Shown here piece by piece: positions 1,341 to 9,993 of a DNA stretch of 12,103 bases (position 1 is its first letter; each line of letters begins with the position of its first letter). Made by a program: the position numbers and the translations under genes. The notes below the pieces were generated by a model. The model was not told the origin of the DNA and ran no database searches. It saw only the letters and a program-made list of their open reading frames with translations. The stretch comes from a virus (taxonomy: Duplodnaviria > Heunggongvirae > Uroviricota > Caudoviricetes), in the IMG/VR virus record IMGVR_UViG_2617270939_000001. The stretch is one strand, 5' to 3'.

Positions 1341-1916
1341 CTACGGCAGTGCTGGCCATTCAATATCCTGTGCAGTTGACGTATCAACACGGTTCAGCAA
1401 TACCCGATACTTTTTCCATGCTTCCAGCAACGAGATTTCTTCCTCCGTTGCAATTTCCAGATCTGCAGCATCCTGAAGCGGCGCAATATGCTCACTGGCT
1501 ACCTGCATCAGGCTGTTTTTTGTTTCTTCCGCCTCCCGGATCCGGAACAGTTTTTCTGCTTCCGTATCCTTCACCCAGGCTGTGCCGTTCCACTTCTGAT
1601 ATTCCCCTCCCGGCGATAACCAGGTAACATTTTCCGGTAACGGACCGAGTTCAGAAATAAATAACGCGTCGCCGGAAGCCACGTCATAAACCGTTTTACC
1701 CCGATGATCTTCAACGAGATGCCACGATGCCTCATCACTGTTGAAAACAGCCACGAAGCCTGCCGGAATATCTGGCGGTGCAATATCGGTACTGTTTGCT
1801 GGCAGACCTGTATGAGGCGGAATATATGCGTCACCTTCACCAATAAATTCATTAGTTCCGGCCAGCAGATTATAAATTTTTATGGTCCGTGGTTGTTCAC
1901 TCATTCTGAATGCCAT
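1341..1916 (-). CDS. tfa: Tail fibre assembly protein (Tfa), 191 aa
   Basis: Its start codon (1914-1916) shares one base with the stf stop (1916-1918), TAATG on the coding strand. Protein is TfaQ/TfaR-like. Convergent with pin, as in Rac and Qin. Confidence 0.85.
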
Positions 1917-3904
1917 TATGCAAGCCTCACAATATAGTTAAATGCGATGTTTTTGACGGTGTTTTCCGCGTTACCAGCAGCGTTAACGGTGATGGTATGT
2001 CCATGTGAACCAATCGCAACGGAGTGCGTATGAGCACCAATACCGACAGTATGTGCGTGTGCACCTGCGCTTGCAGCAGTACCCGATACAGAGTGCGTAT
2101 GAGCGCCTGCAGAAGAAGTGTTAACACTGTATTTAGAATAATCAGGTGATCCACTTCCCGGAGCACCACTGGAACCACCTGAAACAAATGTCATCGAATG
2201 GGTATGTGCACCGGCTGAAGCAGCCGTACCGCTAACACTATGGGTATGCGCACCAGTGTTATTCGTGGATTTAGTGCCGTAATCAAACGACGATGTGGTT
2301 TTCGTCCCCAAATCCGTACTGGATACGCTGGCGCTGTGGGTGTGTGATTTAATGCCGTCCTGTTCCTGAGACAATACGGCTCGATCACTGGCGGGCTTGC
2401 CCTTAATCGTCCAGCCACGCATATCAGGGATCACGCCTGACGGATAAGCGGCTGCAAGTTTCGGGTAAGCAGATTTGTCAAAAGTCTGCCCCTGCATCAG
2501 GGCATAACCAGACGGAACGGTATCTGATGGCCACGGGATTGGTGCGCCGACTGGATAAAACTCTGCAGGAGGATGAGCCGAGGTGTAAAGCTGCGCCCAC
2601 GGCGACCAGTTTGCGTCGGTCGTATCCCGTCGTGAACGAATAAATGCCGGAGCATGATCGCCGCTGGTTCCACTCCAGCCAATAAGTAACTCACCCTCTC
2701 CTACTGCGGTTACACCAGTGAGATGAAGCACATTACCATAGGTTGTTGGGTAGCCATTGTTGTATGCCTCATACATCTGAATGCCTGGTGTACCCTTTGC
2801 GCTCCCACTTAATGCCGTAACACGGTTTCTGGATACTAACGTATTAATATTTATATCGCTGGAACCATCAAATTTAACTCCATTTATATTTATCGCATTT
2901 TGTAACTTGGTTGCTGTCAATGCGTTACCGTTCAGACTTGCGGACAGTTTGGTTCCAATAACCAGTTCGCCGGTTGCGTTATCAATAGCAAACGGTCTTA
3001 ATGTATTCCAGCCACCATAAACATCACCTTGATTGGTAAGCAGCAGGTAAGTTTTAGCGCCATCATTACGCCATAATGCACCATACTCCCCACCTATCAT
3101 TCGAATCTGATTACCACCACGCGCTACAATTTCGTCTGTGGCAAAAAGTTTTTTGCACGACAAGTTATCGTTAACGATTAACGAATGAGACTCATAAAAA
3201 CCACGCCCACTCTTAAAATCAAGGATAACGTCCGCCGCGATACATTCAGTCGCCGGATTTGTTGCCCCAAACTTATAGGTCGTATCATTAACAACGAGAT
3301 CAGCACCAGGTGCGGATATTGACAGGCCATCTTCGATAAACGCAAAAACAGGGAAAGCAGCGCCATCAACATAGAACACAGAGCGCAAATCATCGCCCTT
3401 ATTACTCATCATTATTGAGTGGATGGCTCGTTCATTGTTTTGATATTGCCAGAACATTCCATAAGCATAACGCCCCCTGTCAGTCCAGCCACCAGGCATA
3501 ACAAATCCGTTAAACTCGCAGTTATTCATCGGATCGCCTGCGGTTCGCGTTGCCGTGGTGATAATGACCCTTGATGCCAGTTCGCTTACTGAGCCAGCAG
3601 AACGCATAACAGCAACAGGGTAATATTTTCCAGATGTTGCACCTGCAGGAGCGTTAACCCGCACATAACGCATACCACGCTTATCAGCAAAGTCTGTTTT
3701 ACTGACCGCGTTAATGTTGTTCAGGAAGCGTCCCTTATCGGGTATATCAGCGCCGTTCTGGTCTTTCTGCAGACGTTTCTCTGCATTGTCATAGGCTGCT
3801 TTTACTGCCTTTGGCGTTGCCGCCAGCGTTTCAGACGTGCTGTTGGTCGCACTGCTGAGCTGTACTATCCCCTTTTTCGTCGTGCTCGCATCCTCAAGCG
3901 CCAC
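1916..3904 (-). CDS. stf: Side tail fibre protein (Stf), C-terminal portion only; the frame is open up to about 4294 but has no ATG, and homology to lambda Stf begins about 4230
   Basis: Translation matches the lambda Stf middle and C-terminus ([35 protein letters not shown] … [14 protein letters not shown] … [31 protein letters not shown]). Upstream in the same frame (3905-4230) is the Ala/Ser/Thr-rich repeat typical of Stf. The 3904 start in the ORF track is a GTG (Val in SAVALED), not a true start. Confidence 0.8.
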
Positions 3905-4665
3905 GGCGGATGCAATATCCTCTGCCCGTTTTGCTGCTGTCTCGGCGCGCGTTGCCGCGGATTCCGCCGTACTTTTGCTCTGAGCTGCCGCCGTCGCACT
4001 GCCAGCTGCCTCTGTCGCCTTCGTGGATGCCGTCGTGGCGCTGCCCTTCGCTGCTGACGCCTGTCTGGTCGCCTCATCTTTTGAAGCAGACGCCGATGAT
4101 GCCGATGACGCCGCCGAACTGGCGGACGATGCCGCTGCCGTTTTTGAGGATTCTGCACGGGTTTCCGACGCTTTCGCGTTCGTTTCGGATGTCTTCGCTG
4201 CGGAAGCTGACCTCGCTGCTGCACTGGCCTGTTTTCCAGTTCCGGAAAACGCCGCTGCACCGACAGGGGGATCCCGTCGAGAATACTGGCAATTTCACCT
4301 GCGATCCGCGACAGCACGAAAGTACAGAATGCGGTTTCCACCACTTCAGCGGAGTCTCTGGCATTTTTCAGCTCCTGTGCGTCGGCCTGCGCACGCGTAA
4401 GTCGATGGCGTTCGTACTCAATAGTCCCTGGCTGGAGATCTGTCTCGCTGGCCCGCCGCAGTTCTTCAACTTCCCGGCGCAGCTTTTCGTTCTCAATTTC
4501 AGCATCCCTTTCGGCATACCATCTTATAACGGCGGCAGAGTCATAAAGCACCTCATTACCCTTGCCACCGCCTCGCAGAACGGGCATTCCCTGTTCCTGC
4601 CAGTTCTGAATGGTACGGATACTCGCACCGAAAATGTCAGCCAGCTGCTTTTTGTTGACTTCCAT
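3865..4665 (-). CDS. nohA: Terminase small subunit Nu1 homologue (NohA-like): 146 N-terminal codons are Nu1, then about 120 codons of out-of-frame stf DNA (deletion fusion, probably non-functional)
   Basis: First 146 aa ([29 protein letters not shown]…[12 protein letters not shown]) are nearly identical to lambda Nu1, including the wHTH. After codon 146 (about 4230) the protein becomes an Arg/Pro/Gln-rich tail, which is the Ala-rich stf repeat DNA read in the wrong frame. Confidence 0.8.
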
Positions 4666-4900
4666 TGTTCATTCCACGGCCAAAAACAGAGAAAGGAAAC
4701 GACAGAGGCCCAAAAGTTCGTTTTCAGCACCTGTCGTTTCCTTTCTTTTCAGGGGGTATTTTAAATAAAAACATTAAGTTACGACGAAGAAGAACGGAAA
4801 CGCCTTAAACCGGAAAATTTTCATAAATAGCGAAAACCCGCGAGGTCGCCGCCCCGTAACCTGTCGGATCGCCGGAAAGGACCCGCAAAATGATAATAAT
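4666..4900 (-). other. Intact lambda-type cohesive-end site: cosB (between Nu1 start and cosN), cosN (4843-4854), cosQ side (about 4855-4895)
   Basis: The minus strand reads …CCGACAGGTTACG|GGGCGGCGACCTCGCGGGTTTTCGCTATTTATGAAAATTTTCCGGTTTAAGGCG…, which is the lambda right end joined to the lambda left end with the 12-nt cohesive sequence GGGCGGCGACCT, directly upstream of the Nu1 start (ATG 4665-4663). Confidence 0.85.
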
Positions 4901-5053
4901 TATCATCTACATGTCACAACGTGCATCTACGCCATCAAACCACGTCAAATAATCAATTATGACGCAGGTATCGTATTAATTGATCTGCATCAACTTAACG
5001 TAAAAACAACTTCAGACAATACAAATCAGCGACACTGAATACGGGACAACCTC

Positions 5054-5287
5054 ATGTCAACGAAGAACAGAACCCGCAGAACAACAACCCGCAACATCCG
5101 CTTTCCTAACCAAATGATTGAACAAATTAACATCGCTCTTGAGCAAAAAGGGTCCGGGAATTTCTCAGCCTGGGTCATTGAAGCCTGCCGCCGGAGACTG
5201 TGCTCAGAAAAAAGAGTTTCTTCTGAAGCAAACAAAGAAAAGAGTGACATTACTGAATTGCTCAGAAAACAGGTCAGACCAGATTGA
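5054..5287 (+). CDS. Small basic protein, 77 aa, predicted ribbon-helix-helix DNA-binding fold (YnfO-like by position)
   Basis: Basic N-terminus (KNRTRRTTTRN), then a beta-strand-like IRFPNQ and two helices (MIEQINIALEQ / FSAWVIEACRRRL), resembling Arc/MetJ/CopG-type RHH proteins. Lies between cos and ydfO, where ynfO sits in K-12 Qin. Confidence 0.6.
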   Translation: MSTKNRTRRTTTRNIRFPNQMIEQINIALEQKGSGNFSAWVIEACRRRLCSEKRVSSEANKEKSDITELLRKQVRPD

Positions 5288-5344
5288 AGCAATTTAGATA
5301 ATCGTGCAGACTACGCCCCCTCATATCACATGGAAGGTTTATCT

Positions 5345-5755
5345 ATGGATCAGGTAGTCATTTTTAAACAAATATTTGATAAAGTTCGAAACGATTTAAA
5401 CTATCAATGGTTTTATTCTGAGCTAAAACGTCACAATGTCTCACATTACATTTACTATTTAGCCACAGAGAATGTTCATATTGTATTAAAAAATGATAAT
5501 ACAGTGTTATTAAAGGGCCTAAAAAACATTGTGTCTGTCAAATTTTCAAAGGATAGGCATCTTATAGAAACGACCTCTAATAAGCTGAAATCCAGAGAGA
5601 TCACATTTCAGGAATACAGAAGAAACCTTGCTAAAGCAGGAGTTTTTCGGTGGGTTACAAATATCCACGAACAAAAAAGATATTACTATACCTTTGATAA
5701 TTCATTACTATTTACTGAAAGCATCCAGAAAACTACACAGATCTTACCACGCTAA
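5345..5755 (+). CDS. ydfO: DUF1398-family prophage protein YdfO-like, 136 aa (the ORF track begins at an upstream ATG, 5330)
   Basis: A GGAAGG Shine-Dalgarno lies 7 nt before ATG 5345. Sequence and length agree with K-12 YdfO as I recall it. Confidence 0.7.
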
Positions 5756-5857
5756 ACCATAACGTCCGGCTTCTCTCACTCCTGAGCCGGACTGCATTGG
5801 TTTAATAAAAACCATCAACAATTGTGATTTAGATATTCGGAACCATTCAAATATAAC

Positions 5858-5880
5858 AAAACCCCGTAAAAACGAGGTTT
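5858..5880. terminator. Candidate bidirectional rho-independent terminator between ydfO (+) and gnsB (-)
   Basis: Imperfect hairpin AAACCcCG-taaaaa-CGaGGTTT with T-rich flanks on both strands. Stem has a mismatch. Confidence 0.35.
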
Positions 5881-5906
5881 ATGGATAAATTTTATTATTG
5901 AATACA

Positions 5907-6080
5907 TCAGATTAAATTAATCTTGACATCATAGCTTTCAAGACCCGTCATTTTTTCCCGTGCGGTAAACTGAATACTGGTAACTTCTTTCCCGGTCTTT
6001 TTCTTAAGTTCAATAATTTTTTTTGTTATATATTCAGAAATATCTGCTTCTGCTTTTGTTTTTAAGTTTTCAATATTCAT
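5907..6080 (-). CDS. gnsB: GnsB, 57 aa; absent from the ORF track because it is under 60 aa
   Basis: Manual reverse-complement translation gives MNIENLKTKAEADISEYITKKIIELKKKTGKEVTSIQFTAREKMTGLESYDVKINLI, stop TGA at 5907-5909. AAGAGGAAATG precedes the start (tandem ATGs at 6083 and 6080). Confidence 0.8.
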   Translation of the reverse strand: MNIENLKTKAEADISEYITKKIIELKKKTGKEVTSIQFTAREKMTGLESYDVKINLI

Positions 6081-6251
6081 CATTTCCTCTTTTAGTCTGT
6101 TATGACTTTCCAGTTACACAGTAAGTCGATTATATGGTGCAAACGTGTAAAAGATAAGATGAAACATCGCAATAATCAACATACGATAGTCTAAATTTTA
6201 CACAAACAGACAAAGAGAATTTTCCTGAATTATCAATGCAATAGCATCAAA

Positions 6252-6482
6252 TCAACTCAAGAGCCTTATTGCTGCTTCCAGAATTTCTTCTGAAGTAACA
6301 TGTCGATCCGCGGCTACATAAATGACTTTATGATCTCCGGTCAGAGATGGAAACCCTGCGGCCATTACAGTAAGGTGTGTTTTTTCGCCATTTGGATATT
6401 CACGCATGATGGTGTTAACTCCAGTCATCGCTGGCACTACCACTGCTGGTTCAGAGTTAAAAAAAACTATGATTTTTTTCAT
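6252..6482 (-). CDS. Small hypothetical protein, 76 aa from MKKIIVFF (track ORF extends to a further upstream ATG at 6524); at the position of the cold-shock-induced ynfN in Qin
   Basis: Clean ORF in the AT-rich cargo block, same strand as the flanking gnsB and cspI. Start is ambiguous and the SD is weak. I do not recognise the sequence with confidence. Confidence 0.5.
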   Translation of the reverse strand: MKKIIVFFNSEPAVVVPAMTGVNTIMREYPNGEKTHLTVMAAGFPSLTGDHKVIYVAADRHVTSEEILEAAIRLLS

Positions 6483-6523
6483 GATGTTACCGTAGTATGT
6501 GAGTATCCATCGAATAGACACCA

Positions 6524-6560
6524 AGCAAAAAAGCTCCCGAAGGAGCCTTCATTTTCACTT
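6524..6560. terminator. Candidate terminator/attenuator hairpin between cspI and the downstream small ORF
   Basis: GCTCC-cgaa-GGAGC, a 5-bp GC stem with a GNRA-like loop, flanked by an A run (6524-6532) and T-rich sequence (6551-6565). Stem is short. Confidence 0.3.
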
Positions 6561-6753
6561 TTTTAAATCCAACGACAGACGGCTGGCATTTAAGTATTGT
6601 GAAATATTATCAAATGTAATCATCATTGATTTACAAAAGATACATTTTGCCCCGAAAGGATTCATGTCAGAAACATCAAAAGATGATGTTCTATACTGGG
6701 AACCATGACAACACGGGCATCTAAAGTGAATATGGTTTGTAATATTGTCTACC

Positions 6754-7328: not shown

Positions 7329-8662
<1,334 letters not shown>

Positions 8663-8666
8663 TGGA

Positions 8667-8882
8667 TTATTCTCCTCTCGCAGCCTTACGCCTGTCTTCT
8701 TTAATCTTGAAATAAAGATTTGTCAGATACGTCAGCAGGCCAAAAACCAGGCTACCCAGCACACCGATTGCAGCCCACTGTGACGGAGTTACTTTATCGA
8801 GTAACTGCAATGCCCAGAAACCAGCATTACCCGCCGATGTGCCATAGGCAACACCTGTTGTTAACTTATCCATTGATTTCAT
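8667..8882 (-). CDS. essQ: Class II holin / pinholin, phage 21 S-like, 71 aa, with dual-start motif MKSM
   Basis: [71 protein letters not shown] has two TM segments and is very similar to S21 as I recall it. GGTGAGGAT SD before ATG 8882. The track ORF's 25-codon upstream extension is not supported. Confidence 0.85.
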
Positions 8883-9101
8883 ATCCTCACCCCGATGTAC
8901 ACGGATGGTGCAATATGTTTGAAAAGATCGGAGTCTACGGGGTAGTTTTGACAGCACACGTTGTTCTCAACGGCGCTAAAAAAACATACACATTAAAAAT
9001 GTGGGTAATTATTTTGAAAGAAAGTCATATATAAAATAATAATACGAGAAATGTTTTCATATTTAGTGTACTGTATACGGCCATTTATACAGGAAAAGCC
9101 T

Positions 9102-9851: not shown

Positions 9852-9993
9852 TCTACATTCCTTAACTTGAGCCTTTCGGCATAAATGGTTTGCATAACAG
9901 AAACGACTTCGTACTTAATTGGAGAGACTCAAAGAAGGAATAAGTGAATAACACCTGAAATGAGAACTGCTTTAGTAAACTACTTCGTATATC

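Follow-up and report, generated by a model that had tools for sequence, protein, structure and literature searches.

We report here that the DUF3950 gene ynfO and the DUF1398 gene ydfO, which lie side by side in a prophage of Escherichia coli, stand in an asymmetric relation: DUF3950 is a regular feature of the junction between lysis and packaging genes, whereas the DUF1398 gene inserted behind it is one of several cargoes that may or may not be present. Our overall reading, which we consider probable, is that ynfO encodes a ribbon-helix-helix (RHH) regulator belonging to the lambdoid backbone and that ydfO is a separable, independently regulated moron. Both genes are already known and annotated and belong to the best-studied systems, E. 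coli K-12 and phage lambda; neither has an assigned function. The preliminary description knew of no established function for the pair, and a literature search likewise gave none.

Anatomy of the window

The window, that is, the whole stretch of 12,103 nucleotides analysed, comes from a Qin-type cryptic lambdoid prophage of E. coli. Positions 4700-6100 are 100% identical to NZ_LR536431.1, in which ynfO is labelled as a YlcI/YnfO family protein and ydfO as a DUF1398 domain-containing protein, and the region is matched in 4,844 of 5,426 complete E. coli genomes. Along the window lie, in order, pinQ, tfaQ, the tail-fibre gene, a Nu1/nohA remnant, the cohesive-end sequence, ynfO, ydfO, gnsB-ynfN-cspI on the minus strand, the lysis cassette, cspB and a Q-like antiterminator gene. 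Both genes of interest are on the plus strand, ynfO at 5054-5287 (77 aa, DUF3950) and ydfO at 5345-5755 (136 aa, DUF1398), with a spacer of 57 nt; the coordinates, sizes and spacer given in the preliminary description were exact.

On the upstream side, the Nu1/nohA remnant (4222-4665, minus strand; terminase small subunit) matches Pfam Phage_Nu1 over residues 1-148 with an E value of 2e-90, and RefSeq has a partial DNA-packaging pseudogene at the equivalent position. It is the start of a largely deleted packaging module, and ynfO points away from it. The Nu1-like ORF as a whole (3865-4665, minus strand) keeps residues 1-148 of the family and beyond these an unrelated frame rich in Arg and Pro extends into the tail-fibre gene (1916-3904, minus strand); it follows that the head and tail genes from the terminase small subunit to the side tail fibre have all been deleted; this deletion marks the prophage as cryptic. 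The tail-fibre protein carries a His-rich GAHTHS repeat block near its C terminus, and the tfa gene and pin invertase gene lie next to it. Between the remnant and ynfO, the 12-mer AGGTCGCCGCCC (4843-4854, minus strand) is a unique exact match to, and the complement of, the lambda left end GGGCGGCGACCT, and an AGGACCC element is found among repeats at 4878-4884. From what is known of lambda, we take these to be cosN and cosQ, respectively. The cos region of the window aligns base for base with the lambda right end.

On the downstream side, gnsB (5907-6083, minus strand) is convergent with ydfO and is followed by ynfN (6252-6482, minus strand). A terminator scan located a hairpin at 5859-5880 (minus strand) between the convergent genes; it scores as a gnsB terminator, and ydfO transcripts may end there too. 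No known RNA families were found in 4400-6600. The gene gnsB (Pfam GnsAB_toxin, "addiction module toxin") is the sole toxin-antitoxin annotation in the neighbourhood, and neither gnsB nor the adjoining ynfN had a PADLOC match. The lysis genes rzpQ, rrrQ and holin occupy 7329-8957 on the minus strand, with gnsB, ynfN and cspI between them and ydfO. The pair is thus flanked by cos on one side and by the lysis genes on the other, in agreement with the moron position proposed for it earlier. Within the lysis region, a 279-aa ORF at 7823-8662 (minus strand) joins a DUF1327 N-terminal part to phage lysozyme, and the RefSeq version of this region contains a frameshifted DUF1327 pseudogene and a separate rrrQ. 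Lying at the right end of the prophage, ynfO and ydfO are antisense to the late operon, an orientation from which expression by the resident prophage would be expected, as for lambda bor.

DUF3950 and DUF1398 genes are separable

Among 50,697 GenBank phage records, DUF3950 was present in 155 and DUF1398 in 43, which means that DUF1398 accompanies at most 28% of the DUF3950-carrying records. A diverse IMG/VR sample seeded with a Stx/HNH-type protein contained 74 DUF3950 loci, 22 with DUF1398 (30%) and 52 without; wherever an upstream marker could be identified in this sample, it belonged to the packaging genes (Nu1 or HNH-TerS) and ran in the opposite direction. When the sample was seeded with the window's own YnfO, and hence biased to the Qin-type tail of this protein, DUF1398 lay directly downstream in 78 of 80 loci. 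Individual phages illustrate the variety: Stx phage YYZ-2008 has its DUF3950 gene between HNH and Rz genes that face the other way, and no other gene there; in ev243, YlcI is accompanied by a 37-codon ORF and Bor, and 2H10 has the DUF3950 gene only. In E. coli genomes, the DUF3950 core was found at 9,861 places in 4,184 genomes, and full-length ydfO/ybcV-type genes in only 3,011; the other DUF1398 matches represent ycgX, which occurs in almost every genome.

Three arrangements coexist in K-12: ynfO and ydfO are adjacent, ylcI and ybcV are about 650 bp apart with ybcW on the opposite strand between them, as in lambda, and ycgX stands beside bluR without DUF3950. All nine ycgX-type loci lack DUF3950 within 4 kb. 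Conversely, prophage-type DUF1398 loci with enough flanking sequence have DUF3950 upstream in 31 of 32 cases, and the exception, L118, is rearranged. In this Qin-like prophage (2244-3326), a lambda-type ybcW and a ybcV-like gene are present without DUF3950, and homology ends at the 3' end of ylcI. In a further two loci, from IMG/VR, Nu1, DUF3950, a ybcW-like gene, gnsB, ynfN and cspI are present and DUF1398 is absent. L118 and these two loci show further modular shuffling at the site. The unequal counts, together with the separated and solitary loci, indicate an asymmetric relation and not an obligate module.

The arrangement in lambda and DLP12 is the closest known relative of that in the window. 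The DLP12 genes ylcI-ybcW-ybcV and the lambda right end (complement(48109..48303), lambdap79 and lambdap78) contain the same families in the same strand relationship, likewise placed between cos/Nu1 and bor/Rz. At the protein level, identity is 100% for the YnfO core and 79% between YbcV/lambdap78 and YdfO. The differences are the additional, oppositely oriented ybcW/lambdap79, which leaves about 650 bp between genes that are directly adjacent in the window, and a different and shorter tail in YlcI (64 aa). The RefSeq record of lambda, NC_001416.1, has no feature over this YlcI/YnfO homologue of 64 codons; the ORF is some 200 bp away from cos, and its first 49 residues are identical to YnfO of the window. 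It has been reported that ybcW/lambdap79 is an activator of Vulcan defence, and a 2026 preprint describes escape of lambda-vir from Vulcan by deletion of lambdap79, which its authors attribute to likely recombination with Qin. Such recombination would create exactly the ynfO-ydfO arrangement of the window.

These data bear directly on the proposal, made in the preliminary description from the layout of a small DNA-binding protein gene followed by a gene of unknown function, that the two genes might form a toxin-antitoxin or regulator-effector pair. A type II toxin-antitoxin or abortive-infection pair, with YnfO as an RHH antitoxin whose C-terminal tail neutralizes a YdfO toxin, would account for that layout, for ParD and MazE antitoxins being the best structural neighbours of YnfO, and for the co-occurrence of the Qin-type tail with a directly adjacent DUF1398 gene. 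It is nevertheless very unlikely, since the two genes are often apart, as the records, IMG/VR loci and ycgX loci above demonstrate, and since YbcV of DLP12 and lambda is encoded about 650 bp from, and across an opposite-strand gene from, a YlcI with a different tail. Besides, the 57-nt spacer coincides with a change in base composition, no lethality has been reported from overexpression of YdfO, which was produced for NMR, or of YbcV, and neither PADLOC nor toxin-family searches gave a match. Neither the strict co-occurrence and adjacency of a type II pair nor a recognizable growth-inhibiting toxin family was found, and we reject both the toxin-antitoxin interpretation and that of an obligate regulator-effector pair. 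As in ParD-, MazE- and CopG-type antitoxins, an N-terminal DNA-binding domain and a C-terminal tail are predicted in YnfO and a second gene follows, whereas the partner gene of ynfO is optional, separated in lambda and solitary as ycgX. Separability removes a tempting but wrong annotation.

The two genes share a reading frame and are split by a single TGA (GAT TGA AGC), with no other stop in the spacer (5285-5344), and rare natural TGG alleles encode a DUF3950-DUF1398 fusion (P0122, 233 aa, and P0242). Accordingly, one might think of a single gene with a leaky stop, in which read-through of the TGA yields a functional 233-aa fusion protein. Among 87 directly adjacent pairs, however, 27 are out of frame, 12 have extra spacer stops and none has TGG, the TGG junction had no match in IMG/VR, and the cluster of P0122 consists of ordinary 136-aa proteins. 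The single TGA and the TGG alleles are real, yet unconserved across loci, and we regard a functional read-through product as extremely improbable.

A search of GTDB for DUF1398 beyond enterobacteria employed back-translated patterns that are specific to the enteric clade and is uninformative on wider distribution. Many of the non-enteric assemblies with hits (L098-L131; Pseudomonas, Kitasatospora, Bradyrhizobium, Cohnella, Flavobacterium and others) contain contigs, about 3.5 kb or 48 kb long, in which the genes are arranged as at the lambda right end and identity to YdfO is 79%, and the same pattern was seen in many ENA contigs of about 3.5 kb among the protein hits. Because 3.5-kb or 48-kb contigs carry the full lambda arrangement, most of these hits seem best explained as contamination by lambda control DNA, a sequencing spike-in.

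YnfO has a conserved core with a predicted ribbon-helix-helix fold

YnfO belongs to the DUF3950 and YlcI/YnfO families, with scores above the curated cut-offs of Pfam DUF3950 (PF13132; E 2.7e-21, 75.6 bits, cut-off 25) and NCBIfam YlcI_YnfO_N (NF041551; 36.6 bits, cut-off 30), and it matches phrog_949 with an E value of 6e-34. The family is small, with 120 representatives at 50% identity among 1.84 billion proteins. Its conserved unit corresponds to codons 1-50 (5054-5203, plus strand) and consists of a basic N-terminal arm, MSTKNRTRRTTTRN, followed by a predicted RHH unit with an IRFP strand, a helix at residues 19-32 and an NFSAWV-capped helix at residues 34-49. These first 50 residues are near-invariant across E. 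coli lambdoid phages, and relatives with 33-56% identity retain K-x-IRFP-x-x-L-[helix]-NFSAWV-x-x-AC. The remainder of the gene, the Qin-type C-terminal tail CSEKRVSSEANKEKSDITELLRKQVRPD and the TGA stop (5204-5287, plus strand), is the variable part: at least six unrelated tail types, differing in sequence and length, occur among close homologues. Since other phages carry unrelated tails, there is a mosaic joint near codon 50 of ynfO.

For codons 1-49, dN/dS was 0.09 and 0.03, at dS of 0.69 and 1.56, in comparison with diverged copies, and the protein is thus under strong purifying selection. In phages of the HNH/Terminase_2 type (YYZ-2008 and the prophage in L006), similarity to the window begins exactly at the ynfO ATG; the DNA upstream is an unrelated HNH gene only 41 bp away. 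The onset of homology at the ATG and the low dN/dS rule out that ynfO is conserved merely as DNA overlapping cos. Together with the similarity of YdfO to PDB 2HH8 described below, they identify ynfO and ydfO as real protein-coding genes and not chance ORFs.

An AlphaFold2 (AF2) model of the YnfO monomer has residues 1-18 extended, helices at 19-32 and 34-55, a core pLDDT of about 84 and a low-confidence tail. The strand-helix-helix order of about 45 residues is present, with the strand itself unformed in the single-chain model, as expected; an RHH protomer modelled without its partner strand should look like this. In a Foldseek search of the PDB, the five best hits of the model were ParD RHH antitoxins, yet with E values of 3 or more, and ParD and MazE antitoxins are its nearest structural neighbours at a non-significant level. 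By hhalign, YnfO N14-I-R-F-P18 falls on Arc N11-L-R-W-P15 (P 0.0024), with Mnt and CopG in the same register, and Arc N11 and R13 reportedly contact bases in the operator. The RHH-like fold named in the preliminary description thus gained convergent evidence from AF2, Foldseek and hhalign, no single test being significant. RHH-like is plausibly the best reading of YnfO, based on several weak lines that agree.

YnfO can be compared with Arc and Mnt of phage P22, members of the MetJ/Arc/CopG superfamily. All three are small phage proteins with this order of elements, which in YnfO is predicted; their genes lie in the late region of temperate phages, and the N-x-R-x-P motif, where the strand meets helix A, aligns in register. 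Against this, the N-terminal arm of YnfO is long and basic and its C-terminal tail is variable, no sequence or structure match with Arc or Mnt reached significance, and the window has no ant-like target. Taken together, the 50-residue core is most likely an Arc/Mnt-like RHH dimer, and YnfO would regulate by binding specific DNA sequences, most probably as a repressor at the lysis-packaging junction.

YdfO as a probable, independently regulated moron

YdfO is a DUF1398 protein (Pfam PF07166; E 1.5e-46, 157.7 bits, cut-off 22) and is identical to PDB 2HH8, a structure solved by NMR, at 135 of 136 residues, with one difference. A sequence-profile search of the PDB with YdfO returned 2HH8 only. 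The AF2 model of YdfO was poor (mean pLDDT 46), and there is an alternative in-frame ATG at 5330. No PADLOC defence model matched YdfO or YnfO, and no toxin or defence family was found for YdfO in Pfam or PADLOC. The chromosomal paralogue YcgX, encoded next to bluR, is 44% identical to YdfO, belongs to the same fold family and has the same conserved aromatic and charged positions; it differs in its location outside any prophage.

The GC content is 0.28-0.37 over ydfO compared with 0.41-0.53 over ynfO and nohA (ynfO alone, 0.41-0.47). This drop relative to the flanking phage genes and the optional presence of the gene among DUF3950-carrying phages are both as expected of a moron. A known moron in the same interval, between Rz and cos, is lambdoid bor, which has the same orientation against the late operon; like bor, ydfO is AT-rich, non-essential and present only in some related phages. 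Bor is a lipoprotein that confers serum resistance, whereas for YdfO there are associations from overexpression and transcriptomes only. The mRNA of ydfO has been measured in K-12 and was induced 116-fold by an ionic liquid, and overexpression reportedly raises resistance to oxidative stress. An ASKA clone of ybcV is viable and has a glycogen phenotype, and lambdap78 is non-essential for lytic growth of lambda. The labels "head protein" (PHROG 413, RefSeq) and "envelope protein" for lambdap78 look like inherited annotation and are unsupported here, because lambdap78 is non-essential, encodes a soluble product and runs antisense to the late operon. In addition, lambdap78 (47042-47575, "head protein") appears to be over-extended at its 5' end, as the DUF1398 match starts at 47452.

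A PdhR-box-like palindrome, AACAGGTCAGACCAGAT (5268-5284, plus strand), lies over the last ynfO codons, 61 nt upstream of the ydfO start codon, and is an exact and unique match to a PdhR site that genomic SELEX placed between ynfO and ydfO (PMC7660256). In the same work, the mRNA of the paralogue ybcV fell 10-fold in a pdhR mutant (PMC7660256). This suggests that the box is a host regulatory input to ydfO. Upstream of ynfO by 70-100 bp, there is an imperfect inverted repeat, ATCAATTATGACG-N7-CGTATTAATTGAT (4952-4984), which is kept in lambda, DLP12, ev243 and 2H10. It is absent from the HNH-type phages YYZ-2008 and the L006 prophage, the whole upstream region of which is unrelated. Because it does not accompany the gene in these phages, the repeat is a weak candidate at best for a YnfO operator.

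RHH proteins commonly autoregulate their own operons, and an alternative specific to the Qin subtype is that YnfO autoregulates a common ynfO-ydfO transcript and so sets the output of YdfO, with no obligatory pairing across phages. The same strand, the short spacer and the lack of any terminator or consensus promoter between the genes in our scans agree with this; indeed, a simple promoter scan gave no plus-strand site upstream of either gene. So do the directly adjacent DUF1398 gene behind the Qin-type tail (78 of 80) and the position of prophage-type DUF1398 genes, nearly always downstream of DUF3950. Several observations speak for separate control. The PdhR box immediately precedes ydfO, and the paralogue ybcV, whose promoter region is separate, is activated by PdhR. 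Induction of DicC moved ydfO, one of four responding Qin genes, with ynfO below threshold. The GC content drops sharply at the ynfO/ydfO junction, and no operator travels with ynfO: HNH-type phages have unrelated DNA upstream of the gene, yet the residues predicted to read DNA do not vary. We consider such an operon unlikely, if worth keeping in mind. As the preferred reading has it, ydfO would be optional AT-rich cargo that recombined in downstream of ynfO, with the joint within the 3' part of ynfO, and its product would be a soluble, non-toxic protein with its own host regulatory input through the PdhR box and stress-responsive expression, probably working independently of YnfO.

DUF3950 at the packaging junction and in satellites

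Attention thus moves to YnfO/YlcI as a strongly conserved, probably DNA-binding domain of 50 residues by which the junction of lysis and packaging genes in cos-type lambdoid phages can be recognized. If a regulatory or packaging role of YnfO is true, there is an extra gene for the lambda paradigm; if not, it is ordinary prophage cargo. A packaging- or late-operon-linked factor, to which DUF1398 is irrelevant, might modulate terminase or the use of cos, block read-through or take part in helper-satellite interference. In E. coli lambdoid phages, the packaging genes invariably have DUF3950 as their first upstream neighbour, pointing away from them, and this holds for different packaging modules (lambda Nu1, and HNH with a Terminase_2 TerS); in satellites related to phage-inducible chromosomal islands (PICI-like), it is fused to a TerS DNA-binding domain. 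A gene antisense to the late transcript is, however, badly placed to encode a protein that acts late, divergent family members occur in non-phage contexts, and the conserved position could simply reflect a hotspot of moron insertion. The known lambda cos elements (cosQ, cosN and cosB) are outside the ORF of the ynfO homologue. We judge a factor of this kind to be quite improbable.

In the PICI-like satellites (L006, 4590-5363, E. coli CP027459.1; also L007-L010), two DUF3950 genes are located between the integrase/AlpA end and the primase-TerS-capsid operon. The capsid, TerS and primase genes are on one strand, the DUF3950 gene and the DUF3950-TerS-DBD gene follow on the other strand, facing away from the replication and packaging operon, and the AlpA-like and integrase genes are again on the first. 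One of the two genes (P0328, 120 aa; P0310 in another satellite) is the fusion to the terminase small-subunit DNA-binding domain. It matches Pfam Terminase_2 (E 1.6e-11) and PDB 2CMP, 4ZC3 and 3ZQP, and among PDB sequences only TerS DNA-binding domains were matched. From its domain composition, the fusion is a candidate packaging-interference protein. Rpp of E. coli PICIs was considered as a possible relative of this fusion, and a search of the Rpp paper for a few phrases, among them ribbon-helix-helix, gave no match. The L006 satellite adjoins the TerS/HNH genes of a lambdoid prophage.

A more far-reaching and rather unlikely possibility is that YnfO/YlcI is an overlooked important regulator of cos-type lambdoid phages, which binds the lysis-packaging boundary and controls transcription or packaging, and that satellites have borrowed its domain, using the TerS-DBD fusion to interfere with or redirect packaging by the helper.

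More divergent DUF3950 genes are found beside integrases, in a CbtA/TraI island and at a chromosomal copCD-holE locus. At the last of these (L143-L145, 4001-4192), with no phage genes nearby, the divergent gene P0317 (63 aa) is followed by a 59-codon ORF and lies between a TonB-dependent receptor gene and yebY-copD-copC-holE.
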